Notes: generated by a model from the letters alone, not told the origin. Counted from the stretch's first letter, positions 1,661 to 61,035 are shown. The stretch is 64,000 nt of DNA from a virus (IMGVR_UViG_3300025117_000034); one strand, 5' to 3'. Numbers and translations: made by a program.

Positions 1661-1671
1661 AAGTGCACCCC

Positions 1672-2775: not shown

Positions 2776-2779
2776 TATA

Positions 2780-7551: not shown

Positions 7552-7587
7552 GCTTATATTATACCATCAACAATGAACTATTTAAAG

Positions 7588-7663
7588 TGGTGGGCAAAGA
7601 CAGAATTGAACTGTCATTGACGACTTATGAGGACGCTGTTCTAAACCATTGAACTATTTGCCC
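7588..7663 (-). tRNA. tRNA-Met (anticodon CAT)
   Basis: RC: GGGCAAA-TA-GTTC-AATGGTTTA-GAAC-A-GCGTC-CTCATAA-GTCGT-CAAT-GACAG-TTCAATT-CTGTC-TTTGCCC-A-CCA. Full cloverleaf with one T-T mismatch in the anticodon stem. Confidence 0.65.
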
Positions 7664-11005: not shown

Positions 11006-11670
11006 AGAACACGTCCGTCAAGGATAGGAGCAAGCCCTGTGATCTTGTCAATGAATCTGACGTTCTTGCCAGCAAAGCGTTTCTTGGTGTCCTCCACTGC
11101 TGTGTCACCAATACCCCTGCAGGCAGCGAGGTTGATGACCACACGGAAGCCAGCGGACACAAGCTGCTCAGAGGTGGTAGCCACGCAGTAATTAGTGGCA
11201 AGGCCCCCAACGATCACCAGCTTAATCCCCTTGCTGAACAGGAACTCAATGACCCCTGTGCTCAGCTTGTTGAACAGATCATGGAAGCATGCGCCGTACG
11301 GGTGGAGATTAGGCTCACAGCCCTTCCATACAAAAAAGTCGTACTCCGTAACATCAGGAAGACCATCCAGCAACTCACAGCCAGTGCTGCCTGTTACACA
11401 ATGGGACGGCCAGTGAATGTCCACATTGGGAAGACCAACAGGGGAAAACGGGGGGTGATCACCATCAGCGTTCCACATAGCCCAAGCAGGGTGGGCATCC
11501 TTGGAGCCAACGCGATAAGCAGCGAACAATGCCTGCTTGTTAAGTTCATTGACGATCTCAAGAGCCCCAGGGACAGGGAGCTCAGCAGGGCAGAGTTCAC
11601 TGAACCCCTTCTGAGCATCCACATCAAAGCTGGCAATGTATTTCTTGTCAATAGCCATATCTTGTGCCAC
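10993..11670 (-). CDS. pncA: nicotinamidase / isochorismatase-family hydrolase (PncA-like)
   Basis: FDVDAQKGF Asp, Lys, and catalytic Cys in ATNYCVATT, plus the isochorismatase fold pattern. Overlaps the pncB start. Confidence 0.75.
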   Translation of the reverse strand: MAQDMAIDKKYIASFDVDAQKGFSELCPAELPVPGALEIVNELNKQALFAAYRVGSKDAHPAWAMWNADGDHPPFSPVGLPNVDIHWPSHCVTGSTGCELLDGLPDVTEYDFFVWKGCEPNLHPYGACFHDLFNKLSTGVIEFLFSKGIKLVIVGGLATNYCVATTSEQLVSAGFRVVINLAACRGIGDTAVEDTKKRFAGKNVRFIDKITGLAPILDGRVLWEE

Positions 11671-13614: not shown

Positions 13615-14547
13615 TCATTTCAGTCCCTCCTCCACTTCCTCATTGAACTTAACCAGTCGCCTGTTGCAACCATACAGACACTTATCGCATTTCTCAGGCT
13701 TGTCAGTGTACACTTGATCCCTGTACAGATGCGAACAGGTGTACTCGTTGCCAGCAGTGCTCAGCACCCTCTCACTCATTGATATGTAGCATGTCCCAGC
13801 AGTGTTCTGTGGGAACCGAACACCTTGAATGATCCTTTGCTTGGCATCCAAAGTCTCCTTGATCAGTTCAAGTGATTCCCTGTCAAGTTCATTGTAAAGC
13901 TTGGGCATCACCTCATCAAAGAAGCAATCCACGTCCTCATCAGTCATCATGTAGACAGGGTTGGTGCCCTTGTACACAGAGAAGAACACTGCGTATGCCT
14001 TGTGGAATTCCCTGGCCGCAAACTGGGCAAACTCAACGGACTGCTTGTAGTTTGCCTTGCTCAGCGTGAAGGTAACGCTGACACCATTGTTAACCTCAAC
14101 TGCCTTCTTGATGTTACCAAGCACCCTGGCATGTGCACCAGGAACCCCCACTGTTTTATCCCAGGACTCTGCATCACAGCTATCAAGGGATACCTTGAGC
14201 CGTCCAACGTGCTCAGCTGGCGGCTCAATGAAAGCATTGGTGTTCAGGTTGAACCTGTACCGCTTGCTGTTCTCACGGATCAATGGATACAGCCATGGAA
14301 CCAGTGACGGCTCCCCTCCCGTGATGTGGAACAGGGCTGTGCTGCCATACTTTTCAAGGGCTTCCCTGAAGCGTTCCTCAGCCAGTGTTGTACAGGAGAT
14401 AGGATGCTTACAGTATCCGCACTTGAAGTTACACTTGTTAGTGATGAACACTGCCACCCTGCGGACAGGTGGGTTTTGCCCAGACTTCAGTGCTGCCACT
14501 GTTTCCTTAACTCGTCGTTCAAAGTCATCCCAATACAAGGAAGACAT
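13615..14547 (-). CDS. radical SAM enzyme, MoaA/viperin-like (CNFKCGYC, ITGGEPSL, C-terminal CxxC..C)
   Basis: ITNKCNFKCGYC matches MoaA ITDVCNFRCTYC and viperin CNYKCGFC. HITGGEPSL matches LTGGEPSL. NLNTNAF. C-terminal CDKCLYGCNRRLV resembles MoaA CATCNRLRV. Confidence 0.75.
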   Translation of the reverse strand: MSSLYWDDFERRVKETVAALKSGQNPPVRRVAVFITNKCNFKCGYCKHPISCTTLAEERFREALEKYGSTALFHITGGEPSLVPWLYPLIRENSKRYRFNLNTNAFIEPPAEHVGRLKVSLDSCDAESWDKTVGVPGAHARVLGNIKKAVEVNNGVSVTFTLSKANYKQSVEFAQFAAREFHKAYAVFFSVYKGTNPVYMMTDEDVDCFFDEVMPKLYNELDRESLELIKETLDAKQRIIQGVRFPQNTAGTCYISMSERVLSTAGNEYTCSHLYRDQVYTDKPEKCDKCLYGCNRRLVKFNEEVEEGLK

Positions 14548-17003: not shown

Positions 17004-17135
17004 TTAGTTTACCAGCTCTTCAACAATGTTGTTACCCACTTTCCAGTAATAAGTCCAGCCACCCCCTTTGCGTGACCGTGCATACATGAACCATCCGAAT
17101 ACCTCTCCGAACTTTTTATAGATAGGTGAGCTCAT
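17004..17135 (-). CDS. small ORF (~43 aa), ATGA-coupled to the repeat-protein gene
   Basis: Own translation MSSPIYKKFGEVFGWFMYARSRKGGGWTYYWKVGNNIVEELVN. Its ATG overlaps the TGA of 17132..18157. Confidence 0.3.
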   Translation of the reverse strand: MSSPIYKKFGEVFGWFMYARSRKGGGWTYYWKVGNNIVEELVN

Positions 17136-18157
17136 ACCTTTATCTCCTTGATCACTCTGCATTTACTGACCCGCACTTTTCCTTCCTGGATGGCAAGGAT
17201 ATCCTTCATATCAACTTCGCATGCCAAGTAACAATCAATGAACTCCCTGTCCCAGTAGTGCAGATGGGACAGGTGTATTCCTGAAGCACAGGATTTCTTT
17301 GGGTCCCTGTCAGGATTTTTAACCCTTACCACCTCTCCTACATGGTAAATGAAGTCAATGTTATACTGAGAGTAGAAACCCCTTAGACTCTTGTAAACTG
17401 ATTTAAACAGGATCACCTTCCCATTGACTGGGAAGTGTAGAGTCTGAGCATACAGGGAGTGTTGTTTATTATTACCCCCTGTGATATCCTGTGCTAAGTT
17501 ACCAACTATAAAGTGTGACTCTCCGGTACGAGAATTGCCATACACCCAAGCATTGCCTGACACCTGAGCATCGCCATACACCCGAGAATTGCCATACACC
17601 CAAGCATTGCCTGACACCTGAGCATTGCCTGACACCTGAGCATCGCCATACACCCGAGAATTGCCATACACCCAAGCATTGCCTGACACCCAAGCATTGC
17701 CTGACACCCGAGCATTGCCTGACACCTGAGCATTGCCATACACCCAAGCATTGCCTGACACCTGAGCATTGCCTGACACCTGAGCATTGCCTGACACCTG
17801 AGCATCACCATACACCCGAGCATTGCCATACACCCGAGCATCACCATACACCCGAGCATCACCATACACCCAAGCATTGCCTGACACCTGAGCATTGCCT
17901 GACACCTGAGCATCGCCTGACACCCGAGCATCGCCTGACACCCGAGCATCGCCTGACACCCGAGCATCACCATACACCCGAGCATCACCATACACCCAAG
18001 CATCACCATACACCCAAGCATTGCCCTCATGGCTAAGGTTGGACTCTTTCTCTACAAAGCCACCTTTGTCTCCAGCTTTGACATTGGAGAAGTCCTTAAG
18101 GGCTATTACCCTGTGCAGACCACTAACTTCCTTTTTACCTAGTTTGTACTTTTCCAT
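17132..18157 (-). CDS. hexapeptide-repeat (left-handed beta-helix-like) protein with ~30 tandem G(D/N)A(R/Q/W)V(S/Y) repeats
   Basis: 341 aa. The central 180 aa are perfect hexad repeats (VYGDARVSGNAQVSGNAWVYG...). Non-repetitive N- and C-terminal domains. Confidence 0.7.
   Translation of the reverse strand: MEKYKLGKKEVSGLHRVIALKDFSNVKAGDKGGFVEKESNLSHEGNAWVYGDAWVYGDARVYGDARVSGDARVSGDARVSGDAQVSGNAQVSGNAWVYGDARVYGDARVYGNARVYGDAQVSGNAQVSGNAQVSGNAWVYGNAQVSGNARVSGNAWVSGNAWVYGNSRVYGDAQVSGNAQVSGNAWVYGNSRVYGDAQVSGNAWVYGNSRTGESHFIVGNLAQDITGGNNKQHSLYAQTLHFPVNGKVILFKSVYKSLRGFYSQYNIDFIYHVGEVVRVKNPDRDPKKSCASGIHLSHLHYWDREFIDCYLACEVDMKDILAIQEGKVRVSKCRVIKEIKV
17500..18040. repeat. ~30 tandem copies of an 18-nt coding repeat (gcattgcctgacacc[tc][ga]a variants)
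   Basis: Seen directly in the sequence. It encodes the hexad repeats and generates the spurious alt-frame ORFs 17499..18036. Confidence 0.85.
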
Positions 18158-24407: not shown

Positions 24408-24675
24408 TCAACCCCACCAACCATTCCCAACAGTACAACCACTACCACAAGGCCATACCCTACAACAATGGCCCATTGAATCCTACGAAGTACTCTGCTC
24501 TTTGCTGCCGTCCTTGGCGTGAGTATATACATTGTACCCTCCTTGTTAGGTTTCCCAGCTAACTCTATAAGGCACGGTCAACAGTGCCAGGCTATCACCC
24601 CTGCCTGCTACCGTGCCCTAAGAATTACTGAGCCAAATTATTTTTTGAGTGCTCTGTTTCCGTGACAGTGATACT

Positions 24676-30386: not shown

Positions 30387-30815
30387 CTAGTCTTCTGGAT
30401 AATAGTTCTTGTTACCATGCCTGTGCTCGTCATCCATATCATTAGCTTCTCTCTCAGCTATAGCCTTCTTCTTGCGCAGCTCTGCCTCAATGGAATCAAT
30501 GGGCCACACCATACACTGCTCCCGCTTGTATGTGTCGGAGAAGATGCACTGCTCATCAGGTAGCATGTTGCAGAACTTAACCTGTAATGTTTCCGGTACG
30601 TTATCATAGCTCTTACGCATTACATCCACAGCTTCCTCTGGGCTTGATGCCTTGATAGCCCCAACCATAATGTCATTCATGTCACAGTCCATACCAGTGA
30701 TCCACCAAGGACCATGGTACTCAAACTCCTTCTTGCTACAAGGAGAGATCCAGCTTAGGAAGTACGTGTGCTTAGGTAGTTCCTTCTTAGTCCTCTTCTT
30801 AACTCTACTAGCCAT
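30387..30815 (-). CDS. hypothetical protein
   Basis: ORF track, 142 aa. Confidence 0.5.
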   Translation of the reverse strand: MASRVKKRTKKELPKHTYFLSWISPCSKKEFEYHGPWWITGMDCDMNDIMVGAIKASSPEEAVDVMRKSYDNVPETLQVKFCNMLPDEQCIFSDTYKREQCMVWPIDSIEAELRKKKAIAEREANDMDDEHRHGNKNYYPED

Positions 30816-31369
30816 TAAACCTTACCCTCCCTAGCGAACCGTTCTAGTATGATCCATGCCTTTGCACTGATCATTGCACTGCTATCCTTAAGTAGATCTG
30901 AAACCTCTGCTCGAGTTGCTACATAAGTAGTTATGTCCTCTGAGTCCTGTAGGTCAGGTTCTCCTACACCACCACGTGCCTCACAGTATACAATGGCTAT
31001 AGCTTCATCTGTAAGGCCAGCTGAGTTATACACAAAAGGACTTACACGATTTATACCGAAGAGTGAAAACCCTGTCTCTTCCTTGATCTCCCTGTATGCT
31101 GCGTCCTCAACGCTCTCCCCATCATCTATGAGCCCTGCAGGGAACCCCCACTCGTAGCCGCCAAGAGGTGCCCTGTACTCCCTAGTGATAATAATGTTGT
31201 CACCTATGGTAGCCACAATCATTACAGCGTTGACACCAGTACGCCTTGTGACGAACTGCCAATGCTTTGTGTTACCCTTGATCTCATATGTCCTATCAAT
31301 GAAGGACAGGTGGTTGGTACCAGCTAGGAGCTCATCACCGTCCCCTAGCTTTATTGGATTACGTCTCAT
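30815..31369 (-). CDS. Nudix hydrolase, ADP-ribose pyrophosphatase-like
   Basis: Nudix box GGYEWGFPAGLIDDGESVEDAAYREIKEETG (G-x5-E-x7-REuxEExG). Overall layout as in ADPRase/NudF. Confidence 0.8.
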   Translation of the reverse strand: MRRNPIKLGDGDELLAGTNHLSFIDRTYEIKGNTKHWQFVTRRTGVNAVMIVATIGDNIIITREYRAPLGGYEWGFPAGLIDDGESVEDAAYREIKEETGFSLFGINRVSPFVYNSAGLTDEAIAIVYCEARGGVGEPDLQDSEDITTYVATRAEVSDLLKDSSAMISAKAWIILERFAREGKV

Positions 31370-31580: not shown

Positions 31581-32405
31581 TTAAGGAACCTGAATCATTG
31601 CTGTAGTGTTGTTTCCTAGAACCGTGGTAGGCATTGCACCATTCCATCTCTCAATCCAACGCAGCTGAAGAACCTGTGGGCTCTGAGCCAGGGCCTGGGC
31701 AGTAAGACGGATAGCCTCAGCCTTACCCTTGGCTTCAGCAATGGCCTGATCAGCTTCAAACCTAACCTGCGCTAGCTTGTTCTCTGCTGCTAGAGCATTC
31801 TGCTCTGCTGTAACCTTGGCCTCAACGGCAGCATTGAAGCTGGGAGAGAAGTCGAAGTTAACAATGTTAAGCTCGTCCACTACAATACCCATGGGGGCAA
31901 GCTTCTCACGCAGTAGAACCTTGATAGCCTCGCGCACCTCTTCACGCTTGGTAACCAGTTCCTCTGCTGTATAACGTGCTGTCACTGACTTCACTGATTC
32001 CTGCAGGGCAGGGTCAATCATACGATCCTTGAAGTCAACACCGAACTGCTGGTAGATAGTTGCCACTGCCTCAGGCTTAATGTTAAAGTTAAGAGCCACA
32101 ACACTATGCACTATCTGAAGATCCTTGGATGCTGCAGAGGCTTCAGTCTGCTTCTTCTGAACACGAACGTCAGCAATGATAACTTCCTGCACGAACGGGA
32201 TCTTAATGTATAGACCTTCACCCTTTACGTCTGAGGACACTGCACCGAACGTAGTAGTAACACCACGCTCACCAGCCCCTACAATACCGAACGTACCACT
32301 GATAGCACATAGAACTAGAACAACCAACACACCACCTACAACAACCTTCCAATTAACAAAGTCCATTGCCTCTCCTTTTATTACCCTCTTGCGGGGTGAT
32401 ATCAT
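31581..32405 (-). CDS. SPFH/band-7 (prohibitin/HflC/stomatin-like) domain protein
   Basis: N-terminal TM, then GLYIKIPFVQEV...TARYTAEELVTKREEV...LAPMGIVVDELNIVNFDFS...AEQNA...EA.GKAEA, a typical SPFH domain with a coiled coil. Confidence 0.85.
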   Translation of the reverse strand: MISPRKRVIKGEAMDFVNWKVVVGGVLVVLVLCAISGTFGIVGAGERGVTTTFGAVSSDVKGEGLYIKIPFVQEVIIADVRVQKKQTEASAASKDLQIVHSVVALNFNIKPEAVATIYQQFGVDFKDRMIDPALQESVKSVTARYTAEELVTKREEVREAIKVLLREKLAPMGIVVDELNIVNFDFSPSFNAAVEAKVTAEQNALAAENKLAQVRFEADQAIAEAKGKAEAIRLTAQALAQSPQVLQLRWIERWNGAMPTTVLGNNTTAMIQVP

Positions 32406-35597: not shown

Positions 35598-35957
35598 CTA
35601 GGCTCCCATACCAGCTGGTGTTACTGCTGCTGACCCTGGACTGTTAGCTCCAACCATACCGCCTGTTGGAGTCTCTGCCCCCACTGAAGGAGGATTACCT
35701 GGAGGTGACTGAGTGCCACCCTCTGGCCTCTGGGTCTGCTGCTGAGCTTGTGGGTTAGCCTGAACGAACTGCTGGATGGCTTCGCCAATCTCTGTCAAGG
35801 TCTTCACTGCCTGTTCACGAACCGGACCTTCTTTATATGTGGTGCACACTGTAAGCAGCTCTGTGATGTCACGTTTAATGTTGTTAAAGAACTCAAGGGG
35901 AACCCGATCCTTCTCAAGCATCTCTACCAGGTTCTTCATGTTAAACCGTGTTCCCAT
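35598..35957 (-). CDS. hypothetical protein
   Basis: ORF track, 119 aa. Confidence 0.5.
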   Translation of the reverse strand: MGTRFNMKNLVEMLEKDRVPLEFFNNIKRDITELLTVCTTYKEGPVREQAVKTLTEIGEAIQQFVQANPQAQQQTQRPEGGTQSPPGNPPSVGAETPTGGMVGANSPGSAAVTPAGMGA

Positions 35958-36151
35958 GCTTCAACTCCTGAAAATTTTTTAGGTGCTCTTATTCCGTCAC
36001 TGTGATACTAAACAGGATTTTGTATCACGTATTTAAAAGACTTATGACTTCAGTTTTCTAAATCTAAATTGTCTGTTTCCGTCACTGTGATATCTAAATT
36101 TAATAGGTACTAGCCTTAGATGTCACGCAGTAGTGTATAAGAAAATAGTTA

Positions 36152-36748
36152 CTAAGCTACTTTAACTTTACACACCCATGCAGCCTGGAGGAATGGATCA
36201 GCAAGCAGTGGTCGTAGTAGGTATCTCCGGCTACATTCCTCTATATGATTCTCTGTAATCTCGCAGCAAGGCCACACCTTACCACGCATCTCCTTATTAA
36301 AGAATGTCATATCAGGTGCATAGTCATGAGCCATAATAATATCCCCAACCTTAAGGAATTGGGAGAAGTGATTGAACTCACCAATCTTGTTACCATTGTC
36401 GCATAGTAGAACTGTGATGCCATCCTGCCTGATCATATCAGAGATCTCTTTTAGTGTATCACTTGCAAAGATATCCTTGAACCGCATATCAACACCGAGC
36501 TTATCCAGTACTGACTTGTCAAACAATGAGTTAGCAATGTCGTAGGAGATTACAGAGCAACCTGCTGTTAGGCTGTATAAACCAAGGAATGTAGTGAGCC
36601 CACCATTGAGAGCACCTAGCTCAATGACACGAGCTGGCTTCACAGTCTTGAAGAGCATATCAAAAGCCTCAAGAGCATACTCGTTCTGTGACATTGGGTA
36701 CCCAAGGAAGTCAAGCCTACCTGAATTACCAACAACACTATGCTTCAT
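36152..36748 (-). CDS. class I SAM-dependent methyltransferase (CmcI/Methyltransf_24-like)
   Basis: ARVIELGALNGGLTTF resembles motif I. Size and position fit the glycan cluster. Confidence 0.45.
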   Translation of the reverse strand: MKHSVVGNSGRLDFLGYPMSQNEYALEAFDMLFKTVKPARVIELGALNGGLTTFLGLYSLTAGCSVISYDIANSLFDKSVLDKLGVDMRFKDIFASDTLKEISDMIRQDGITVLLCDNGNKIGEFNHFSQFLKVGDIIMAHDYAPDMTFFNKEMRGKVWPCCEITENHIEECSRRYLLRPLLADPFLQAAWVCKVKVA

Positions 36749-37454
36749 ACGTGAACTCCTTTAGCTCAAACACTGGTTTAAACGTGGCATTAGTTGTGAA
36801 TGACTTTGCATTACTGTGTATACCATTGATACCTATATGGTTACTACGTGAGTGACCAGGAACAACATTGAACATATTGTTCCTCTCAATGATCCTTCGT
36901 ATGTTCCAGTCCCAACCACCTGGAGTTCCTGTAGCCTTACCACTTGAGTAATCAAAGTCCCATGTGTTACGCAGATACGTATTCCATCTGTCCTTCCATG
37001 TCATCCATACCCAGCAGGTTAGCAATCCTAATTTTCTAAATGCATATGGGTTATCCTCTTGCACCGTTTCATTCCTACCACTGACAACCATCACATCCTT
37101 CTGATCCTTGAACAACTTATCAGCTGCAGTGAACATATCAATGATATCATTAGATACAATGAAGTCTTCCTCTGCCAGTACTACACTATCTGAATGTTCA
37201 AACCCACGCTCCAAAGCATTCCAGCTGTTCTTTGCACAACCAATGACTCCCTCATTAACATTGATTGTTACATCACCCACTGAAGAGTTATGACAGAACG
37301 AATCAAGGACAGCAATCATCTCCTTGAGCTTGTCAGTCTTCTCTATATTGAATATCATCTTTACCTTATCAAGATTGTTAACTGCTGCCCAGGAATTCAT
37401 AGTCTCAACAAAGTAATCAACTCTGTTGAATGCAGTGAATGTTATGCAAAGCAT
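36738..37454 (-). CDS. glycosyltransferase, GT2-like (GT-A fold)
   Basis: N-terminal CITFTAFNRVDYFVETMNS resembles GT2 IPTYNR. Acidic EED motif. Confidence 0.45.
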   Translation of the reverse strand: MLCITFTAFNRVDYFVETMNSWAAVNNLDKVKMIFNIEKTDKLKEMIAVLDSFCHNSSVGDVTINVNEGVIGCAKNSWNALERGFEHSDSVVLAEEDFIVSNDIIDMFTAADKLFKDQKDVMVVSGRNETVQEDNPYAFRKLGLLTCWVWMTWKDRWNTYLRNTWDFDYSSGKATGTPGGWDWNIRRIIERNNMFNVVPGHSRSNHIGINGIHSNAKSFTTNATFKPVFELKEFTYEA

Positions 37455-38065
37455 GTGGCTCTGTACCCCTCCATGATTACCTCTAGTATGTTCTCATCCT
37501 TTGTAGCCATGAACAGACCACGATCTGTTCTCTCGTTGTCCCGCTGTTCACAATCATGTACCCAGTAATAACTTGGGTCATTAACTATAACGTTGTACAA
37601 CGTTATAGTTAATGCGCAACCACCGAGCTTTAGGTTAACCGAGTTGGTGTCATGAGCTACCAATAGCCTAGGTAGTTCTGGCTTAGCTATGATAGCTTTC
37701 CACTCCTCCTGGGTTGGAGCAAGGCGATGGTCGCTGTCCAGGAACACAACATCAAAGGGTGGGTTGATACGTATGGCATCAGCACCCTTACCATGGAAGA
37801 TCTCATGCCCACCAATAACCTTTATTGCCTGTGGCTGAAAGTTAATGTCAGCGAACATAGCTCTAAGGATATGCCCCTTGTTGGCTGCATCAACGAACAC
37901 AGAGCTCGACACACCCTTCCACGAGCCAGACTCCAATGATGATAGCCATGGCCCACCAACAGGGTTGCTCAACACGTAGTGCATCCACTCTAAATGCCTC
38001 GTGTCAATTGACATACCAATGTCGAAGTCTGTCACACCTAGCTCAGCAAAGTTAATGTTACTCAT
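37442..38065 (-). CDS. methyltransferase-like protein (DVVFLDSDH motif)
   Basis: FDVVFLDSDH resembles class I O-MTase DFVFIDADH. Confidence 0.4.
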   Translation of the reverse strand: MSNINFAELGVTDFDIGMSIDTRHLEWMHYVLSNPVGGPWLSSLESGSWKGVSSSVFVDAANKGHILRAMFADINFQPQAIKVIGGHEIFHGKGADAIRINPPFDVVFLDSDHRLAPTQEEWKAIIAKPELPRLLVAHDTNSVNLKLGGCALTITLYNVIVNDPSYYWVHDCEQRDNERTDRGLFMATKDENILEVIMEGYRATCFA

Positions 38066-38723
38066 TGTGCACGTTCAGTCTGCTCAGTGCCGCAACCCTT
38101 AAGTCCTTGTCCACTGAAGTAAGGTGTGCAAGGAAGTCACCCTCAGCCCATGGATCCAAAGCCAATGGTTGAACAAAAGCTGGCACAGCATTTAGGATAC
38201 GACGATTTAGAATATTAATATAGTACCTTGTGTGTGGCACAGTCTTGAGCACTTCCCTTACTGCACCTTGATCCTGCTCATAGACTGCACGTGAGTACTT
38301 AAGCAAAGAGCTAGCAAGGTCCAGCAGTTCATTACCTCTAGTGGTATTCATCCACACAAAGTTACCCATAGAGAAGTTACTGTAGGGCTGGTCAATAGGA
38401 TGGTTACCCCAGTCAGTAGATGCATACAAGCATTTCTGACCGTCAATGTTATGCAGGGTCTTAATCAGAGTCATGATGTCAATGAACTGATTAGTTATAA
38501 CTGCATCAGCATCAAGCCATAGTACAGCATCATACCCTTGCTGAAACAGTTCCTTGATTAAACGTAGCTTCTGCCAAGATGGCAGACCAAACTCTTCTGG
38601 GTAGTCAACGTTACACTTAAATGATAGCCCGTACTTCTCAGCGTACCATTCTTTACCCTGCTTGGTACGTGCACCCATCCATGCAAAGTCTTCCCTGTAA
38701 CCTGTAAGCAATACGGTATTCAT
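38058..38723 (-). CDS. nucleotide-sugar glycosyltransferase (GT-A, DxD)
   Basis: YDAVLWLDADAV carries a DxD motif. Confidence 0.5.
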   Translation of the reverse strand: MNTVLLTGYREDFAWMGARTKQGKEWYAEKYGLSFKCNVDYPEEFGLPSWQKLRLIKELFQQGYDAVLWLDADAVITNQFIDIMTLIKTLHNIDGQKCLYASTDWGNHPIDQPYSNFSMGNFVWMNTTRGNELLDLASSLLKYSRAVYEQDQGAVREVLKTVPHTRYYINILNRRILNAVPAFVQPLALDPWAEGDFLAHLTSVDKDLRVAALSRLNVHNE

Positions 38724-38731
38724 GTAATCTC

Positions 38732-39463
38732 CTAGTTAAATGTGTAGCGGCCTGAGATACCATCAAAGATGCAGTTGGGACACTTGATATACGATTCCTG
38801 CGCAAAGGGAAGCCCTAGGCCGATGCGAACTGACATAGGCATACTTTGGTTACCAATGAAATATCGTGCGTCCTTGAGCCTCTGAGCTAGCACCAATGCG
38901 TTCTCACAGGGGTAATAGGGGATGTCAATCTCAAAGGTCTTACTGAACACCTCGTGCTCAAACGGTGTGCCTACGAACTCTGCCTTGTCCCTACACATAC
39001 CAGCAAGGGTTACCCACATGATATAGGCTGTGTGATATCTAAGACTTCTGTTAACAACTATCTCTCTGACAGGAGCTCTACCACTATCAGGAACCTCAAT
39101 CCAAGGTATAATCTCTTTATCAGATAGATCTAGATTGAAGTACTTAAGATGGGACTGAGCTAGGTTCTCTTGATTATCTGCCCTAAGCCTTGTTCTAAAG
39201 CCATTTAGATTTACATTGATCTTCTGTGATACATACTTCTCTACGCCATGTATGTAAGGCTGAGCTTCAATCAGCGGCTTAAGGAAGTTATAACAAGTGT
39301 CATTGAACTTAAGGTGCCACCCAGATCCAAGCTGCCGGTTAACAAACGGATCGTTTCCACCCCCGCTAGTATCCAGATACAGTACTCCACCACCCATTGC
39401 GCGTATCGTTGGAAGCGCATATACAATGTCCCCCATGTCTCCTGAATGTAAAAAGGTCTTCAC
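38732..39463 (-). CDS. GT9-like (heptosyltransferase-fold) glycosyltransferase, tentative
   Basis: SGDMGDIVYALPTIRAM resembles GT9 LGDV...P..RAL. C-terminal FIGNQSMPMSV resembles VGNDSGPMHLA. Confidence 0.4.
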   Translation of the reverse strand: MKTFLHSGDMGDIVYALPTIRAMGGGVLYLDTSGGGNDPFVNRQLGSGWHLKFNDTCYNFLKPLIEAQPYIHGVEKYVSQKINVNLNGFRTRLRADNQENLAQSHLKYFNLDLSDKEIIPWIEVPDSGRAPVREIVVNRSLRYHTAYIMWVTLAGMCRDKAEFVGTPFEHEVFSKTFEIDIPYYPCENALVLAQRLKDARYFIGNQSMPMSVRIGLGLPFAQESYIKCPNCIFDGISGRYTFN

Positions 39464-39672
39464 TTTTTGTGCTCCTTCTTAATCTGCAACATATTCTTGG
39501 ATCTGGTCTTTAGCCAATGCTTGGACACTTTATCACCACACTGAAGGCACACTATGAACTTCTCTTCATTTAGTTTCTGGTGGAATGTTGTACGCTGTAC
39601 TGCTACTTCTACACTACCCCTGTCAGGGTTTTCTATTAGTTTACCACAGTCATCACAGAACGTAGCTTGCAT
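39460..39672 (-). CDS. zinc-ribbon mini-protein
   Basis: CDDCGK...CLQCGDK. Confidence 0.45.
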   Translation of the reverse strand: MQATFCDDCGKLIENPDRGSVEVAVQRTTFHQKLNEEKFIVCLQCGDKVSKHWLKTRSKNMLQIKKEHKK

Positions 39673-48450: not shown

Positions 48451-49932
48451 CTACACCCACCGGATGCTGCTCTTCACGAAGAAGCCGTCGTTCAGCATTG
48501 TCTGGGCATTCTTTGTGATCACGCCACGTTCATATTCCATGTTCCCTACTGGATATGGATCAGTGACCATGATTGGAATGAATGGAAGCCATGCATAACC
48601 GGCTTCGATCCAGCTGTTACCCTTTGCGCCCATGACATACTCATTGTCACCATACGCTAGGTTACGGTAGATGTCCCAACGATCCATCAACCGACCAACC
48701 TTGTGTGGACCTGTAGGTGGCTGCATGCCGTTGTTCTCAACCTTGAACATTGTGTTAGGCATTGACATGATCAGGTTGCAAACTTCGTTACCTGCACCCA
48801 GCCATGTGCCCTGGATACGCCGTGTGGTCTTGTAGATCTGTGAACTTTCGCGCTGTAGATGCTTCACGAAGTCCTGGGCGCGTTCCATTTCGCTGATGAA
48901 CACTGGGTTAGCTGCTAGGAAGCGGTCTGCACCGGCTAGAGTTGATGCAGGAGCCTGTGCCATAATGTCGTCCAGAACTAGCTGGTCGATTTCGGCGCGG
49001 AGCTCACCGGCGAGAATTGCGATTGCTTCGTCGTCAATGCTCTTGCCATAGTGCTGCTCTAGTTCGAATGCTGAGTCAAGCAACCAATTCATTGCTAGCT
49101 GACGCTTCTGTGCTACCACGACTGCCTCACGGATTGCGAGCTTCACGCGGCCAGTGTTGGCTGGGCGACTTTCGAAGTCGAACTCATAGCTTGCAACTGT
49201 TAGTGCATTGGTCTGAGGAACGAACGCAACACCAACGTTGAAGGTACCAATTGCCTGGGTGTTGTCATGAACGATTGTTACTGTGTCAACGCCATCAGTG
49301 ATGGTGAATGAACTAGCTGCTGCAGTGCCAGTGAAGGTACGAACAGCTGCACCATCCCAGTAACCAACAGTAACAGTAGCCCCAGTCTTGAATGGGAAAT
49401 GCTCGAAGCTGTGTTCATAGTTGGTACCAATTGCACCAAAGGCTGCAATAGGCTCGCCCTGAACGATGTCTGAGCTGAAGTACTTATAGGCATTACCATT
49501 GTTACGGAGACCAGTAACCTTCTGTGCATGGAACATTGTGTCGCCTGGGCGAATGATACCCTGGCCTGTTTCATACTGGTAGTCTAGCCAGAAGACCTGA
49601 CCAGTCTTACGATCCATAGGCTGAACGCTAACAATGTCGTCTAGGATTGAGCTTGGGATCAGTGCGCTGATCAGCTCGAAACCATGACGAATGTAGGTGC
49701 CTAGGTCTGAAGTGGTTAGCCCTTCAGTCTTTAGGTAACCGCGTTTCTTTGCAATCCCTTCGAAGTAAGCCTGGGTATTGGTGAGGCACTGCCCTAGAAC
49801 TGCTTCAACGTTCTCAGGTAGGTTGCGGCCATGAGCTGTCTTGTAGAAGCTCTGGACTGCTTCCAGGTGTTTCTTGAATTTGCTGTTGGCAGCTTTGCAA
49901 CCCTGCTCAACTAGCTGTGTGTGATTTGCCAT
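48451..49932 (-). CDS. major capsid protein, T4 gp23-like (HK97 fold)
   Basis: LDDIVSVQPMDRKTGQVFWLDYQY matches T4 gp23 FDICGVQPMNSPTGQVFALRAVYG. VAQKRQLAMNWLLDSAFELE matches IEAKSRQLKAAYSIELAQDL. Promoter-like motif about 110 nt upstream. Confidence 0.85.
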   Translation of the reverse strand: MANHTQLVEQGCKAANSKFKKHLEAVQSFYKTAHGRNLPENVEAVLGQCLTNTQAYFEGIAKKRGYLKTEGLTTSDLGTYIRHGFELISALIPSSILDDIVSVQPMDRKTGQVFWLDYQYETGQGIIRPGDTMFHAQKVTGLRNNGNAYKYFSSDIVQGEPIAAFGAIGTNYEHSFEHFPFKTGATVTVGYWDGAAVRTFTGTAAASSFTITDGVDTVTIVHDNTQAIGTFNVGVAFVPQTNALTVASYEFDFESRPANTGRVKLAIREAVVVAQKRQLAMNWLLDSAFELEQHYGKSIDDEAIAILAGELRAEIDQLVLDDIMAQAPASTLAGADRFLAANPVFISEMERAQDFVKHLQRESSQIYKTTRRIQGTWLGAGNEVCNLIMSMPNTMFKVENNGMQPPTGPHKVGRLMDRWDIYRNLAYGDNEYVMGAKGNSWIEAGYAWLPFIPIMVTDPYPVGNMEYERGVITKNAQTMLNDGFFVKSSIRWV

Positions 49933-55042: not shown

Positions 55043-55498
55043 TTACTGTTGGACGGCAGTAAGAAGATTCTGCCCTTCAACAAGAATACCTGTGATGTTT
55101 GCAAGTGCTGAATTAATAAGAGCTTCCTTAGCTGACATCTTACTTTCAATCTGTGATACTGATGCTGCATCTCCAGCCTGATCTGCCGTAGCAAGCTGCT
55201 GTAACATCCCAGCGTAAACCTTTAATACCTCTGTTAATGCATTCTGAGATGCTCTGAACTTAGCATCAACTGAACTCCAACTGTTCCACTGTGCATCTGT
55301 CATCATACCAGCAATCTTTGCTTTAGCAAATGCATCTTGGGTATTATACCATGTAGCACGTGTGGTCATCATGGTATTAGTGCTAACCTGCAGAAACTTG
55401 TTTGTTACCTGACCATCCTGAATATAGTACTTTGTACCAACACATCCTGGAGCAGCTAGAATAGCACAGAGTAGAACCAAACCCAACAGTTTCTTCAT
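55043..55498 (-). CDS. lipoprotein (candidate o-spanin-position gene)
   Basis: MKKLLGLVLLCAILAAPGC signal plus lipobox. Confidence 0.5.
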   Translation of the reverse strand: MKKLLGLVLLCAILAAPGCVGTKYYIQDGQVTNKFLQVSTNTMMTTRATWYNTQDAFAKAKIAGMMTDAQWNSWSSVDAKFRASQNALTEVLKVYAGMLQQLATADQAGDAASVSQIESKMSAKEALINSALANITGILVEGQNLLTAVQQ

Positions 55499-55507
55499 AC
55501 GTTCCTC

Positions 55508-55918
55508 CTAGCCCTTTGATGGCTTAGCATAAGTTACAATCTTTGCAATGATAACAGGCATGTACTCTTTACCAAGAATAGCTAGAATATCCATACCCTT
55601 TGTCTTGCCCAGATTGATTGCAATCTTAGTTGCCTCGTCACGTGCTTCAAGGATATCCTTCTTTTTAAGCTTGCCCTTCTTTGCCTTCAACGCACGAACA
55701 GTTTCAACGTACACCTGCTCAACTGCAACCTCTACTAGCTTGTAGGCTTCCTCATACAGATCGTTCTTCTTACGGAGTGCCTCTGTCTTCTTTGCTGCCC
55801 ACATCTTAAAAGCTGCCCAAACTGGGGCACCAACTACTGCAAGAACGCCAAACACATACTGCCAAAGATCTGCTTGGGTCAATGCATTTACTAATGCTGC
55901 CTTAATTTCTGGTGTCAT
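55508..55918 (-). CDS. type II membrane coiled-coil protein (i-spanin-like)
   Basis: N-terminal TM LWQYVFGVLAVVGAPVWAAF, then a K/E-rich helical periplasmic domain. Confidence 0.4.
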   Translation of the reverse strand: MTPEIKAALVNALTQADLWQYVFGVLAVVGAPVWAAFKMWAAKKTEALRKKNDLYEEAYKLVEVAVEQVYVETVRALKAKKGKLKKKDILEARDEATKIAINLGKTKGMDILAILGKEYMPVIIAKIVTYAKPSKG

Positions 55919-56178
55919 TTAACACCTCCTAGAATAGTATACAAATAAATTGATACCAAGAATAACATAATGCCAGCAAGATCTGCAAATAAATCCCATA
56001 AATCACAGCAGTGTGGTGGGTTATAGTGATCCCACATTTCCTTTGCTGCGCCAATACCCAGAGCTACAGCGCACACAAACAACACTGAACTGAGTGATTG
56101 TCCATACAGCAGGACCCAGCAGATTATGAAGCTTACCAAGGCGTGAAGAATTTTGTCCTTAAATTTCATGTCTACCAT
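55915..56178 (-). CDS. small multi-TM protein (holin-like)
   Basis: 87 aa with 3 hydrophobic segments. ATGA-coupled upstream of the i-spanin-like gene. Confidence 0.4.
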   Translation of the reverse strand: MVDMKFKDKILHALVSFIICWVLLYGQSLSSVLFVCAVALGIGAAKEMWDHYNPPHCCDLWDLFADLAGIMLFLVSIYLYTILGGVK

Positions 56179-56453
56179 GTGAACCAGGATTTAATTATGC
56201 TCCATGCAGATGGCTTCTTGTCCTCATCTGACATGAAATCTCTAACTGCGTTATCCATGGCTCTCTTTCTATTAAATGAAAACGAGCTATACAGCATCTT
56301 TATGATGGAGTGCAGCTCTTTACTGCACTCTGAACAAAGTTCCAGATCACCTAAGTATACCAGCTTATTATCTAAATCGTTCTTAGTCAAAAGCTTAAAA
56401 CACTTATCACAGATTGTCTTTTTCATTGAGCACACCTCTAACCCTTTGCTCAA
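56172..56453 (-). CDS. zinc-ribbon protein
   Basis: CDKC...CSEC. Confidence 0.45.
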   Translation of the reverse strand: MSKGLEVCSMKKTICDKCFKLLTKNDLDNKLVYLGDLELCSECSKELHSIIKMLYSSFSFNRKRAMDNAVRDFMSDEDKKPSAWSIIKSWFTW

Positions 56454-56468
56454 TGTATAACTAAAAAG

Positions 56469-58781
56469 TTATGCAGCACCAACCATAAGTTCGAAGGCTC
56501 TGACTGCAGCACCCCATGTAAACATCTGAGCCTTCTTAATACCAGCCTCTGACTTCTTCTTCAGTGTCTCACGATCATCATACGAGTTACGCATATGAGC
56601 TACAAGTGAGTCCATACTTGGCTGAAGATTGAACCAGCCATTGTCTGTATCCTTTGCATCAATGTATGCTGGAGCTCCACAAGCAACTGTGCTGCAGGTT
56701 ACCAAGTAACTTGTATCCTTTGAAGTGAAATCCATACTACCACCACCGGCTGTGATAATAGCTGGTGTACCTACAGCCATAGCCTCAAGAGCGCATAGGT
56801 TGAACCCTTCTCCACGGTTGGGACTAACTACTACATTGGCCCTCTTGTACAACCCAGCGATAGCTTCCTGTGGCATGAATGAATCCATCACAGTAATGCG
56901 CGGATAATTCTCCTTGCCCTGCATGTGCTGCCGAACCTGCTGCACAAAGTTAGGCATGTTAGGAGCCTGCAGTGTCTTGATAACAAGGGCAACATTGTCT
57001 GACTTGCTAAATGCTTTTGTATATGCATCCAGAACATAGCTAACACCCTTGCGGCTATCAACTGACATTAGACTACCAAGCATAAGGATTACAAATGTAT
57101 CTTTCTTGATGTCAGAGAAATCATGTGGCGTGGCATCAGTGTTGAACACTGACTGGTTGTACCCCAGACCCATGCCTTTAACCTTTTCTTTTGGAACACC
57201 TGAGCCAGTGAATACAAACTCCTCATGCTTGGACAAAGGCATAACATAGTGCAAACCTGGGTTCCATGATTCCTGGACCCACGACTTAGGAAGGTTCTGC
57301 CATTCATAAGGAACAAGATTTACATTTGTCCGACCAACCATAAGCTTACTGTCTAGTGGATAGGATACTCTCAGGTGGTAATCAAAGTTACGGTGTGCAT
57401 AGCTATTGTAGCATGCTGTACGTGCTAGCTCCTTGTTCTGGTTCCAGTGATCCACTGTGAAGTTAGTGTGCTCTACAACATACCCACGTTTGCTGAACTC
57501 CTCAGCTAGTGCCCTGCACACTACTCCGTAAGAGAATGTTGGGCTATCATTACCCTGGATAAGAATGCTACGAGCCGTACTACCAATAAAACACCCTCTT
57601 GGCTCATTTTCTACACAAACTATATTCTCAACCAAATCAACCCACTGCTTCTGAATTACTGGTGCACTATACTTTGCAATGATGTACTCACGCATCGCAG
57701 TCTTTTCTTCTTCAATGGAAACATTGTTCTTCCATGTCTGGTACATCACCTCGAGTGCTTCAGCTGCTTTGTCCGTGTCCATCAATGGACGATCAACACC
57801 AAGGTCTGGCTGGATGTCAAAGGCAATTGGATCAATAAGAACTCCATGGTTGTCAATGATCTCAGGCATAGTTGAGCTCTTGGTAGTGATATTGACAACA
57901 CCACATGCCATTGTCTCAATCAGTGTTACTCCGAATCCTTCTGACGCTGATGGCAAACAATGTACATCTGCCATGTTCATTAGGCTGACCAGTTCTTCTG
58001 TGGAGCACTGCAGCTTACTTGATAGACCACATGAGTCCTTCACACCAAAACGTTCAATCAGGTAAGGAAGGTTGTACCCTGTCTGAAGATTAGTTGACAC
58101 AGTACTCACGTCAGTGTGCATAATAAGAACTGCATCCTTCTTGTCTTTTACGAACTTAGCCCACGCACGAATAAGAAGATCAGGACGCTTTCTCCACTGG
58201 TTACGCGAAACAAATAGTGCTACAAACTTGTCCTCGAAGCCACCCTTCTTCTTAAGCTCCTTCTTGTCTGCTACAGGCTTGAACACTTCAGTATCAACAC
58301 CCAGATAAATAGTTGAAACAGTGTGCTCATTAGGATGTTTATCTAAATACGTGCTATATATTCTCTTGCCATAATCAGCCATGAATACAAGATGCTTACG
58401 GAACCAGATCTGGCTATGAACTGCAGGCTCATTGATTGGCTCGCAGTCAACCGCCACCCAGTGAATACAACGGTTACGCCACTTCTCAGGCAGCTTTGCA
58501 ATATCCATTGTCCAGCTAAACTCAGCAACTGAAATAATTACATCTGGCTGCTCAACAAGAATGATGTGATAGATCTCGTGGTACTCACTTGTACCCTTCA
58601 CACCATATAGCTTCCAATGTGGCTGGAACATTGAGATACCTTGGTCCTTTGCATTGAACCCAATGGACACAACCTCGCTACCATTGTTAATGAACCCGTT
58701 TGCAATTAGTCTGATCTGGTTTGAGAACCCTGTGTGTTGAGCCGGAGAATCGCCAATGATTAGAATCTTACGCACATGCAT
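56469..58781 (-). CDS. dual-domain GT4 (GT-B) glycosyltransferase
   Basis: Two E-x7-E GT4 signatures: EGFGVTLIETMACGV and EGFNLCALEAMAVGTPAI. Confidence 0.75.
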   Translation of the reverse strand: MHVRKILIIGDSPAQHTGFSNQIRLIANGFINNGSEVVSIGFNAKDQGISMFQPHWKLYGVKGTSEYHEIYHIILVEQPDVIISVAEFSWTMDIAKLPEKWRNRCIHWVAVDCEPINEPAVHSQIWFRKHLVFMADYGKRIYSTYLDKHPNEHTVSTIYLGVDTEVFKPVADKKELKKKGGFEDKFVALFVSRNQWRKRPDLLIRAWAKFVKDKKDAVLIMHTDVSTVSTNLQTGYNLPYLIERFGVKDSCGLSSKLQCSTEELVSLMNMADVHCLPSASEGFGVTLIETMACGVVNITTKSSTMPEIIDNHGVLIDPIAFDIQPDLGVDRPLMDTDKAAEALEVMYQTWKNNVSIEEEKTAMREYIIAKYSAPVIQKQWVDLVENIVCVENEPRGCFIGSTARSILIQGNDSPTFSYGVVCRALAEEFSKRGYVVEHTNFTVDHWNQNKELARTACYNSYAHRNFDYHLRVSYPLDSKLMVGRTNVNLVPYEWQNLPKSWVQESWNPGLHYVMPLSKHEEFVFTGSGVPKEKVKGMGLGYNQSVFNTDATPHDFSDIKKDTFVILMLGSLMSVDSRKGVSYVLDAYTKAFSKSDNVALVIKTLQAPNMPNFVQQVRQHMQGKENYPRITVMDSFMPQEAIAGLYKRANVVVSPNRGEGFNLCALEAMAVGTPAIITAGGGSMDFTSKDTSYLVTCSTVACGAPAYIDAKDTDNGWFNLQPSMDSLVAHMRNSYDDRETLKKKSEAGIKKAQMFTWGAAVRAFELMVGAA

Positions 58782-59418: not shown

Positions 59419-61035
59419 CTAAATGTATTTAATGTTTATACAAACCTTGCCAGGAATGATTGACGCTGTGTTTCCGGTAGTACCAATACATACCTCAGTT
59501 GAAGCTGTGACATTACCGTTCACAATGTCGTTAACACTTATGTTCACTGTAGGTGTTAGGTCAACGTAATCCGTAGCATTAGTTGATATATCCCCACTGT
59601 AGTAAGAAACTCCATTAACAATAATCTTAATTCTACCATATGCAGGTACTCCTGCGTTATCTGTCTTCAAGCCAAAACAAGAGTTTCCCATAGCAGCAAC
59701 TACTGTCTCTGAACCCCAAACGTTAATTAATGGGACTCTTATTTGAGTTGTTGTTCCTGTCTTGTACGCAGGGTAACCGTCAACAGATGTAGTAACAGTT
59801 GTATTTACGTCTCTAAGTACGAACGCTCTTGTCATTGGTGAATCATCTAGCGTGTCTAATGCTGCTTGTACAGTGGTGTCTGCTGTTGACAAACGCTTAC
59901 TGAAATTAGTAGTGTCTGGCGCAATCGCTGTCGCAGGGTGTGAGTTAGCATCTGTACGGTTAGATAGCGCAGAGTGTGACGTGGCTGAAACAATACCACT
60001 AAGCACTGACCTTGTACCAATCAGACGATTAACAGACTCAATTACAGTGTAGAACGAAGTACCTGCCACTGTTCCACGCTTGCAGACAATCTGATATAGT
60101 GGGGCAAGTTCTCTAAATGGTACATGTGCCCCCCATGAGATAGCTGTGGCAAATGAAGCTGCTGACGCAGTTGCGCTTGATGTGTGGAGAACCTGTCCTT
60201 GGATAAATACCATCTTGTGTTTATTGTCTATTGTAGGTACTGCACATACCCACACGTTGAACCAACTATTGATTGTGCTGATTTCTGTGTTTGTCCAATT
60301 ACCACCCGACAACTGATTATAGAACGGGTTGGTTGTGTTGTTGATAAATGGAGTGTTACTGTCTTGCCAATCCCACTCGCCAGTCACATCTGCCCCACTG
60401 CGATACCAACAGTTATAGGAAGTATTAGCTGACACAGCGGGGATAGTAGTGTACAGGTCTTCGTCTGCAATAACCCCTGTGCCCACTGTTGGTTGAACAT
60501 CAACAAGGACATTTGAGTTGACGGTGTAGCTTGAAATAGCAAACCCGCTTGTAACCCGTGTACCCTCGTGAGTGTGCTCGTACAGGTGAGTTGCATTGCT
60601 CATACCACTTGAAGCAGGGTGTCTCTCATCCATTAGGATTCCCTTGCCTGTAGTGGCATTATAGTACACTGCTGCTATCGGGGCATCGTCTACTAAATTC
60701 CAAGATGCTGTGTTAAATGTAACTGCTCCACTGCTAAGTACCTGCAAGAAGTATGAGTCGGTGACATCAACATGGTTAAAGGTCTGAGTAGGCAGTGGAT
60801 ACTTTACCCCTGCCACATACGCCGATGCACCGTTAGCAGACATGGTAACAACCATATTAGCCGAGTCATACGCAAGGGATACCGCTGTGTTGTTGTCTAT
60901 GCCGTTGTAGTTTGTCAATGACGATTGAGTGTCAGTTATCTTAGACCCATTAACGCCAATAAGAGTACTCGACAGGTTCTCGTAGGTATTGGCTGACACC
61001 TTATCATCGAATTTATGCTGACCAAAATATTCCAT
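59419..61035 (-). CDS. tail fibre / receptor-binding protein candidate
   Basis: 538 aa, S/T/N/G-rich, beta-rich composition. Adjacent to the fibre genes. Confidence 0.5.
   Translation of the reverse strand: MEYFGQHKFDDKVSANTYENLSSTLIGVNGSKITDTQSSLTNYNGIDNNTAVSLAYDSANMVVTMSANGASAYVAGVKYPLPTQTFNHVDVTDSYFLQVLSSGAVTFNTASWNLVDDAPIAAVYYNATTGKGILMDERHPASSGMSNATHLYEHTHEGTRVTSGFAISSYTVNSNVLVDVQPTVGTGVIADEDLYTTIPAVSANTSYNCWYRSGADVTGEWDWQDSNTPFINNTTNPFYNQLSGGNWTNTEISTINSWFNVWVCAVPTIDNKHKMVFIQGQVLHTSSATASAASFATAISWGAHVPFRELAPLYQIVCKRGTVAGTSFYTVIESVNRLIGTRSVLSGIVSATSHSALSNRTDANSHPATAIAPDTTNFSKRLSTADTTVQAALDTLDDSPMTRAFVLRDVNTTVTTSVDGYPAYKTGTTTQIRVPLINVWGSETVVAAMGNSCFGLKTDNAGVPAYGRIKIIVNGVSYYSGDISTNATDYVDLTPTVNISVNDIVNGNVTASTEVCIGTTGNTASIIPGKVCINIKYI

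Follow-up and report, generated by a model that had tools for sequence, protein, structure and literature searches.

What might a T4-like phage build with a run of overlapping glycosyltransferase (GT) and methyltransferase genes? This question is raised by a locus in the viral sequence IMGVR_UViG_3300025117_000034, of which a stretch of 64,000 nucleotides (nt), referred to here as the window, was analyzed. The locus consists of five minus-strand genes, g1 to g5, at 36152–39463, together with a separate gene for a 770-amino-acid (aa) protein at 56469–58781. It is most likely that the encoded enzymes attach a methylated sugar chain to some component of the infected cell. As for what is decorated, the best reading, a tentative one, is that virion proteins are glycosylated and O-methylated in the cytoplasm late in infection.

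Gene organization of the cluster

An earlier note on this DNA had described an overlapping five-gene operon at 36152–39463, and all five open reading frames (ORFs) were confirmed there on the minus strand. In the order of transcription, they are g5 (38732–39463; 243 aa, GTG start), g4 (38058–38723; 221 aa), g3 (37442–38065; 207 aa), g2 (36738–37454; 238 aa), and g1 (36152–36748; 198 aa). Genes g5 and g4 are separated by an 8-nt gap, and the g4/g3, g3/g2, and g2/g1 junctions overlap by 8, 13, and 11 nt, respectively. Moreover, the operon was extended upstream. A 70-aa ORF with a CxxC...CxxC zinc ribbon (39460–39672, minus strand), for which weak zinc-ribbon matches only were obtained, overlaps the start of g5 by 4 nt; thus, the coupled string comprises six genes rather than five. 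This small ORF was also called as a gene in the identical contig L003. Shine–Dalgarno-like GGAG sequences were found ahead of g1, g2, g4, g5, and the gene for the 770-aa protein (56469–58781, minus strand).

The six enzymes, namely, g1 to g5 and the 770-aa protein, contain neither transmembrane segments nor signal peptides, and the maximum hydropathy over 19 residues was ≤1.41. They are therefore predicted to act in the cytoplasm. Their predicted isoelectric points are acidic to neutral (5.2–7.1), and PADLOC returned zero defence-system matches for all six. Altogether, the cluster and the 770-aa protein provide five sugar-transferase domains and one or two methyltransferases.

The operon is closed by a 194-nt gap (35958–36151, minus strand) that holds two exact copies of the 16-mer TATCACAGTGACGGAA, located 3' of g1 at 35992–36007 and 36077–36092, 85 nt apart. 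A motif search with a chance expectation of 0.72 matches yielded a third copy with 2 mismatches at 24658–24673. The repeat may represent a promoter or operator specific to the phage, at the boundary between late and early genes. Scans for sigma-70 promoters and terminators showed no enrichment over shuffled sequences.

Glycosyltransferases of the cluster

The main new element of the locus is the family to which g5 belongs, an unannotated GT9-like family common to phages, giant viruses, and bacteria of the Planctomycetota–Verrucomicrobiota–Chlamydiota (PVC) group, including Planctomycetota. The label "GT9-like" given to g5 in the earlier note was borne out by the fold. The protein is modeled as a compact GT-B glycosyltransferase closest to solved GT9 enzymes; WaaC and WaaF were its best solved structural matches, and TibC was among the nearest. 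About 200 residues of g5 were aligned to targets of 320–381 residues, and both Rossmann-like halves were present in trimmed form. The likeness to GT9 appears at the level of fold only. No sequence match was obtained for g5 in Pfam, NCBIfam, or PHROG at E ≤ 1, Glyco_transf_9 (PF01075) included, and a profile built from 34 family sequences matched WaaF (1psw) only at E = 1.2. With 243 aa, compared with 320–380 aa in WaaC, WaaF, and TibC, g5 also falls short of the full-length two-domain GT9 size of about 320–350 aa. The residue D12, in the motif HSGDMGD, is invariant across the 34 members and may be the N-terminal catalytic Asp of the G-D motif, corresponding in position to Asp13 of WaaC.

The relatives of g5 repeatedly occur with methyltransferases and glycan genes. 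In a search of predicted viral structures, the best match was a phage protein in which a g5-type domain is fused to an FkbM methyltransferase (TM-score 0.84), and the next matches were proteins of Klosneuvirus and Pithovirus. On a metagenomic contig, a g5 relative lies beside an Anp1-like GT, a PglD-type acetyltransferase, a DegT aminotransferase, and a GT4, and on a 1.26-Mb bacterial contig, another adjoins a GT2 with DegT nearby. In IMG/VR contigs, the relative is placed between two methyltransferase-like ORFs directly upstream of the terminase. In a metagenome-assembled genome (MAG) of Altibacter, it belongs to an operon of GT4, GT2, methyltransferase, GT2, GT-D, GNAT, epimerase, and DegT genes. 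A single conserved partner of g5 was considered and rejected, the contexts being diverse across 19 bacterial loci. Among reference genomes, the family is concentrated in MAGs of Planctomycetota (Tepidisphaerales, Phycisphaerae), Verrucomicrobiota, and Victivallales, which may be a hint at the host range of the phage or at the source of the gene. When g5 and g4 were compared with 50,697 phage records using tblastn, nothing was found. Naming the g5 family, which is absent from Pfam, PHROGs, and NCBIfam, would better annotate phage, giant-virus, and PVC-bacterial genomes.

For g4, the previous description as a DxD GT-A gene was confirmed from the sequence. The protein exceeded both curated Pfam cutoffs, those of Glyco_transf_34 (PF05637; 3.8e-9, 37.1 bits, cutoff 23) and Nucleotid_trans (PF03407; 8.1e-6, 26.4 bits, cutoff 22), and direct reading located the motif D70-A-D72 within LWLDADAV. 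The protein is described as GT34/GT77-like, either of the two families. For the identical protein in L003, both Pfam matches had been recorded as well.

The third gene, g2, had been called GT2-like. It was upheld as a glycosyltransferase gene, but the matches of its family profile make GT13-like the better label, and its product is predicted to be a GT-A enzyme similar to GnT-I and POMGnT1 with an E-D-D motif. On its own, g2 matched GNT-I (PF03071) at 4.6e-5, with 22.8 bits against a cutoff of 25.4, and MGAT2 at 1.9e-4; precomputed PF03071 matches were present on five of its homologues. PDB sequence searches with single proteins were uninformative. The g2 family profile matched POMGnT1 at 1.3e-11 over 215 positions and GnT-I at 2e-6. 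A conserved A-E-(D/E)-D motif was found in 24 homologues, with A94, E95, and D97 invariant; it reads AEED in the window protein and AEDD in relatives, and it was aligned to EEDL of POMGnT1 and EDDL of GnT-I. Downstream W-D-W and S-R-S motifs were also aligned with the family. These GT13 relatives are beta-1,2-N-acetylglucosamine (GlcNAc) transferases that extend protein-linked mannose. In contrast to them, g2 is a catalytic core of ~235 aa without a stem or a transmembrane segment, and its family has a phage and metagenomic distribution.

One homologue of g2 is gp8 of Microbacterium phage Magritte (30.5% identity, E = 9e-35), whose gene has a UDP-glucose dehydrogenase gene and a second GT gene nearby and lies upstream of the terminase and portal genes. 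Magritte is one of three other large phages in which g2 relatives occur shortly, i.e., a few kb, upstream of the terminase and portal. In the neighborhood of one g2 homologue, a Zn_ribbon_8 ORF stands directly before a methyltransferase gene.

The dual GT4 protein

The separate dual-GT4 enzyme proposed for 56469–58781 was found as described. Glycos_transf_1 (PF00534; 1.7e-38) and Glyco_trans_1_4 (PF13692; 4e-32) each matched two stretches of the 770-aa protein, which also gave matches to GT4-conflict (1e-17) and phrog_2170 (5e-57). Its halves align to each other with 24% identity (E = 9e-6), and the E-x7-E motif is present in both, as EGFGVTLIE at 281–289 and EGFNLCALE at 658–666. The assignment as two complete GT4 catalytic units (GT-B, retaining-type) is thereby confirmed at the level of sequence. 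Relatives in the PDB were BshA, MshA, and the chlorovirus protein B736L. Matching phage records covered one half each, never exceeding 45% of the protein; thus, the fusion has not been seen in cultured phages. The distance to the operon is 17 kb.

Both GT loci adjoin a small basic ORF with a CxxC...CxxC zinc ribbon, namely, the 70-aa ORF upstream of g5 and a 93-aa ORF (56172–56453) downstream of the dual GT4 gene. Homology between these two ORFs was rejected, as they shared a 17-aa CxxC match only.

Methyltransferases of the cluster

Two class I methyltransferase-like proteins had been reported in the cluster. This stands for g1, by profile and motif, and is weaker for g3, for which one sub-threshold match was obtained. 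The product of g1 was confirmed, from its sequence, to resemble CmcI and rhamnosyl O-methyltransferases among the class I S-adenosylmethionine (SAM) methyltransferases. It matched FtsJ at 3.5e-5 (24.2 bits, cutoff 24.1) and RMNT_CmcI (PF04989) at 1.5e-3, and some of its homologues, of which 1276 representatives were collected, lie above the PF04989 cutoff. The family profile matched PDB methyltransferases at 9e-6 and CmcI at 1e-4. Motif I reads IELGALNGG, and G45, G49, and D117 are invariant. Homologues of g1 are found fused to HtrL_YibB, the GlcNAc-transferase domain PF11397, Glycos_transf_2, or Methyltransf_24 domains. The fusions to glycosyltransferase domains link this type of methyltransferase to glycan synthesis, and one fusion to a Methyltransf_24 domain mirrors the pairing of g1 with g3.

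The product of g3 is a probable Methyltransf_24-type class I SAM methyltransferase and a sequence orphan. Methyltransf_24 (PF13578) matched at E = 5e-4 with 21.3 bits, below the cutoff of 26.3, and by direct reading the motifs LESGSWKGVSS and VVFLDSDH resemble motif I and D-x-D-H of that family. Its single PDB match was an isoaspartate O-methyltransferase at E = 0.33. The homologue search gave none outside its own near-identical cluster, and a single-sequence AlphaFold model had a mean confidence (pLDDT) of 35.6, without a usable fold. BLAST against the Methyltransf_24 domain of the protein P0081 gave no match. With hhalign, no relation to the g1 profile appeared, and g3 is not regarded as a paralogue of g1.

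The window and the L003 assembly of the same phage differ by 9 nt in 13.5 kb, all within a 13-nt patch in g3 (37602–37614). The patch turns EGPAW into ALTIT and creates a perfect 36-nt palindrome at 37579–37614 (18 + 18, no loop). A single contig carried the ALTIT variant of the window, compared with 21 contigs carrying EGPAW. The patch probably reflects an artefact of assembly or a rare variant produced by foldback or gene conversion. Diversifying selection, suggested by all of the variation being non-synonymous, was rejected, since the differences form this single patch.

Genome context and the structural module

The source genome is T4-like, measures ~139.5 kb, and was assembled repeatedly from metagenomes; the phage is known from metagenome contigs only. 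Exact-protein look-ups with window proteins identified the contigs L003, L009, and L010 as the same phage (~100% identity). Megablast against the 50,697 phage records returned no near-identical or close cultured relative, and IMG/VR scans with g2, g4, and the 329-aa and 1338-aa proteins mentioned below found no relatives of the phage.

Of the 120 non-overlapping ORFs in the window, 104 lie on the minus strand. From ~64 kb down to 36 kb, they form a T4-like late module with Portal_T4, a Peptidase_S77 prohead protease, a Gp23-type capsid protein (48451–49932), and a gp13-like protein. The gp13-like protein is followed by three large acidic proteins (1338, 329, and 459 aa; no family match) and then by the cluster, so that the operon forms the 3' end of an unbroken co-directional late structural block. 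On one side of the dual GT4 gene lie two fibre-like ORFs rich in Ser and Thr (798 aa, 61176–63572, and 538 aa, 59419–61035), and on the other, small membrane or lipoprotein ORFs that precede the portal. The latter, between the dual GT4 gene and the portal at 55043–56178, include a 151-aa ORF with a lipobox-like N-terminus (LAAPGC) and hydrophobic ORFs of 136 and 87 aa, which, as read from their translations only, look like a lysis set of the spanin/holin type.

Directly downstream of the cluster, a 119-aa protein is encoded at 35598–35957, in which 23 of the last 30 residues are Ser, Thr, Pro, Gly, or Ala. This tail is the sole mycobacteriophage-style candidate O-glycosylation tail near the cluster.

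Proposed function of the locus

The earlier note had suggested that the phage builds or remodels a methylated glycan. Since the enzyme classes were essentially right, this is a fair inference, and it is strengthened because g1-type domains are fused to GTs and g5-type domains occur beside or fused with methyltransferases and glycan genes. The less secure parts of the suggestion are g3, with its sub-threshold match, and the dual GT4 protein, which is tied to the operon by conjecture. As regards the target, for which virion, lipopolysaccharide (LPS), and DNA had all been named, the gene context would favor virion proteins and disfavor DNA.

The locus may be regarded as a late-expressed, soluble, cytoplasmic toolkit for building glycans. 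The operon enzymes would use host nucleotide sugars and SAM as donors. The three GTs are expected to differ in chemistry, with g5 being an inverting-type GT-B, g4 a retaining-type DxD GT-A, and g2 an inverting-type E-D-D GT-A enzyme. Acting in one pathway, they could extend a short hetero-oligosaccharide stepwise, which would then be methyl-capped, presumably on sugar hydroxyls, by two O-methyltransferases of the CmcI/Methyltransf_24 kind, of which one is certain and the other probable. The dual GT4 protein would probably contribute another two sugars, either to this glycan or to a different one on the virion. The acceptor should be cytoplasmic or exposed at the inner leaflet, the most likely candidates being virion proteins that the phage itself encodes in the same late gene block.

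Two kinds of observation lead to this proposal. First, the enzymes contain no hydrophobic segments, and no initiating phosphoglycosyltransferase, flippase, or polymerase is encoded nearby; the chemistry is therefore expected to be cytoplasmic. Second, virion proteins are favored as acceptors because the operon closes the late structural block at its 3' end, because the dual GT4 gene sits among fibre and portal genes, and because the nearest characterized relatives are TibC, POMGnT1, and GnT-I. Among these, TibC, one of the nearest solved relatives of g5, is a cytoplasmic protein O-heptosyltransferase acting on an autotransporter.

Several points weigh against virion proteins as the target. The acceptor, on the virion or elsewhere, is a candidate only, and position within the late block is suggestive of function rather than proof of it. 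A C-terminal extension rich in Ser and Thr, of the kind seen in mycobacteriophages, is missing from the capsid protein. The product of g3 is not securely a methyltransferase, given its sub-threshold match, and a combination of GT9, GT4, and GT8-like enzymes is also a classic mix for LPS core assembly. BLASTP of g1 to g5 and the dual GT4 protein against gp35 to gp38 of mycobacteriophage Corndog, whose cassette is compared below, revealed no orthology; the best match was g2 with gp38 (E = 6.8e-4 over 52 aa around E-D-D), and the other pairs gave E > 0.2. Furthermore, the part inspected, i.e., the window and ~11 kb of flank, amounts to ~75 kb of the ~139.5-kb genome, and no divergent phage relatives were found in which co-conservation of the cluster with particular structural genes could be tested.

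Alternative explanations

Remodeling of the host envelope is an unlikely explanation overall, yet the one that survives best among the alternatives. The enzymes would then act at the inner membrane face on lipid-linked intermediates, such as precursors of LPS core, O-antigen, capsule, S-layer, or other surface glycans, and the altered surface of the infected cell might, for example, block superinfection or keep progeny from sticking to debris. The GT9-like, GT4, and GT8/34-like enzymes make up the usual LPS core set, with WaaC and WaaF as the best structural matches of g5; g1 homologues are fused to HtrL_YibB, a family of the LPS core region; and g5 relatives occur in bacterial polysaccharide operons. 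A precedent exists in cyanomyoviruses, which encode up to 13 GTs interpreted as cell-wall modifiers (PMC12801897). However, neither an initiating phosphoglycosyltransferase nor a flippase, polymerase, ligase, or membrane protein was found in or next to the cluster, and the surroundings of the genes are the virion late block rather than early or moron genes. In addition, the lipid-A-core heptosyltransferases exceed g5 in length by 80–100 aa, no sequence model of GT9 is matched by g5, and late remodeling of the surface would be of little obvious gain for a lytic T4-like phage.

It is rather improbable that the genes share no pathway at all, i.e., that accessory genes acquired independently of one another make up a mosaic, each with its own target, such as small molecules, host proteins, or different glycans, and that the dual GT4 protein is unrelated to the operon. 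The relatives of each gene occur in different contexts, g3 is an orphan, and the dual GT4 gene lies far from the cluster. Nevertheless, the start/stop overlaps of the six genes argue for co-expression and stoichiometric coupling, and the association of GTs with methyltransferases recurs independently in the g1 and g5 families.

Hypermodification of DNA would have the GTs build a glycan, possibly methylated, on a hydroxymethylated base as protection from restriction or CRISPR, as in T4 and the 5mYOX/ThyS clusters. It would agree with the T4-like lineage, with the other counter-defence genes of the phage (NAD+ salvage and Apyc1, described below), and with the capsid protein, whose nearest cultured relative is that of Bacillus phage SP-15, a phage with sugar-hypermodified DNA. 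Phage GT-A and GT-B enzymes are also capable of adding di- and trisaccharides to 5-hydroxymethylcytosine (10.1101/2023.12.21.572611). Such pathways are normally clustered with a C5-cytosine methyltransferase (C5-MT) and dioxygenase or with a thymidylate-synthase-like (ThyS-like) hydroxymethylase (10.1101/2023.12.21.572611). A scan of the 27 larger window ORFs and the precomputed Pfam matches for the ~11 kb of flank revealed no C5-MT, TET/JBP-type dioxygenase, or ThyS-like hydroxymethylase. With no hydroxymethylation genes found in the ~75 kb inspected, methyltransferases of the small-molecule or sugar O-methyl type rather than DNA methylases, T4 beta-GT absent from the structural neighbors of g5, and enzymes of acidic to neutral charge, this explanation is very improbable.

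Other accessory genes in the phage

Outside the two GT loci, a ubiquitin-like conjugation set is encoded on the minus strand at 461–4628. It consists of a JAB-like protein (461–1660, minus; Prok-JAB, 1.9e-4), a ThiF/E1-like protein (1672–2844, minus; ThiF, 1.9e-30; PADLOC CBASS-type E1-E2, 1e-18), and a protein with two MIB_HERC2 domains (3528–4628, minus; 6.8e-14), which elsewhere are characteristic of E3 ligases from eukaryotes. A 258-aa ORF without assignment (2780–3556, minus) lies between the E1-like and MIB_HERC2 genes. The JAB gene is adjoined, just beyond the start of the window, by a gene for an anti-Pycsar Apyc1/metallo-beta-lactamase protein (11204–12082 of contig L010).

A set for NAD+ salvage and reconstitution is found at 9051–11670 and 30815–31369, with isochorismatase-like, NAMPT/NAPRTase-like, NAD synthetase, and NUDIX proteins. 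Further accessory genes are located at 13615–14547, 17132–18157, 31581–32405, and 7087–7663; they include those for a radical SAM protein (1.2e-8), a YdcK beta-solenoid/bactofilin-repeat protein (6.7e-39), and an SPFH/Band-7 protein (1.9e-34), and an HNH endonuclease gene that adjoins the single tRNA-Met gene.

Comparison with known systems

To our knowledge, phage-encoded glycosylation of virions has been demonstrated essentially only in mycobacteriophages, for which Freeman et al. reportedly described it in 2023 (as cited in PMC12619734). In mycobacteriophages, virion glycosylation alters antibody recognition, and the other known uses of phage glycosyltransferases are DNA glycosylation and seroconversion. 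Five GT domains with methyltransferases in a T4-like structural module suggest that glycan decoration of this sort extends further and is more complex than has been assumed. Small soluble enzymes of the locus, such as the GT13-like core, the 243-aa GT9-like protein, and the sugar O-methyltransferase, could serve glyco-engineering. Cassettes of this kind have precedents in mycobacteriophages and in giant viruses of algae, and the likeness of the present locus to these would be one of functional analogy rather than family membership. In addition, none of the fetched loci of relatives shares more than one gene of the cluster; therefore, the gene combination is specific to this phage.

The DNA-glycan clusters of Pyle et al. 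resemble the locus in having several clustered phage GT-A and GT-B enzymes capable of making oligosaccharides (10.1101/2023.12.21.572611). They differ from it in that no C5-MT, 5mYOX, or ThyS gene is adjacent here, the methyltransferases are of the sugar or small-molecule type, and the neighbors are virion rather than replication genes.

A closer layout is that of the cluster O mycobacteriophages, in which an O-methyltransferase, two GTs, and a GlcNAc-transferase-like gene are found between the gene for the portal and that for the protease (PMC4351075). The cassette of Corndog comprises gp35, an O-methyltransferase, gp36 and gp37, both glycosyltransferases, and gp38, which is GlcNAc-transferase-like; gp35 was checked and belongs to TylF/Methyltransf_24. 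In Corndog, the layout of which was also checked, as in the present phage, GT and O-methyltransferase genes are embedded in a structural operon. Common to both are overlapping genes and a TylF/Methyltransf_24-type methyltransferase combined with several GT-A enzymes within the virion structural operon (PMC4351075). The likeness would extend to soluble enzymes that are not virion components and are expressed late, features predicted here from the genes. Unlike Corndog, which is an actinobacterial siphovirus, this phage is a T4-like myovirus; it has an additional GT9-like GT-B enzyme, a second methyltransferase, and the two-domain GT4 protein, and its capsid protein lacks the Ser/Thr-rich C-terminal tail.

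In chlorovirus PBCV-1, A064R combines a GT34-like rhamnosyltransferase, a novel rhamnosyltransferase, and a 2-O-methyltransferase, and A061L is a 3-O-methyltransferase; the two soluble proteins finish the methylated N-glycan of the capsid independently of host machinery (PMC9614988). The present locus likewise encodes a GT34-like DxD GT-A enzyme, a GT of a previously unannotated family, and two class I SAM methyltransferases of ~200 aa, one of them probable, all soluble and predicted to be cytoplasmic. The second domain of A064R and the g5 family are also alike in having relatives in Planctomycetota and Pithovirus; when g5 was compared with BFVD and PDB structures, A064R did not appear in the matches. 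In PBCV-1, the activities are combined in the three-domain A064R and the host is algal, whereas the phage has separate genes and a bacterial host.

It is conceivable, if doubtful, that this T4-like phage of a non-actinobacterial host runs an autonomous line in the style of the chloroviruses, in which its own capsid or fibre proteins undergo five glycosyl transfers and two O-methylations within the cytoplasm, and that g5 founds a miniaturized, GT9-derived family common to phages, giant viruses (Klosneuvirus, Pithovirus), and Planctomycetota. If so, glycan shielding of virions would extend beyond mycobacteriophages, and the glycosylation toolkits of phages and giant viruses would be linked.

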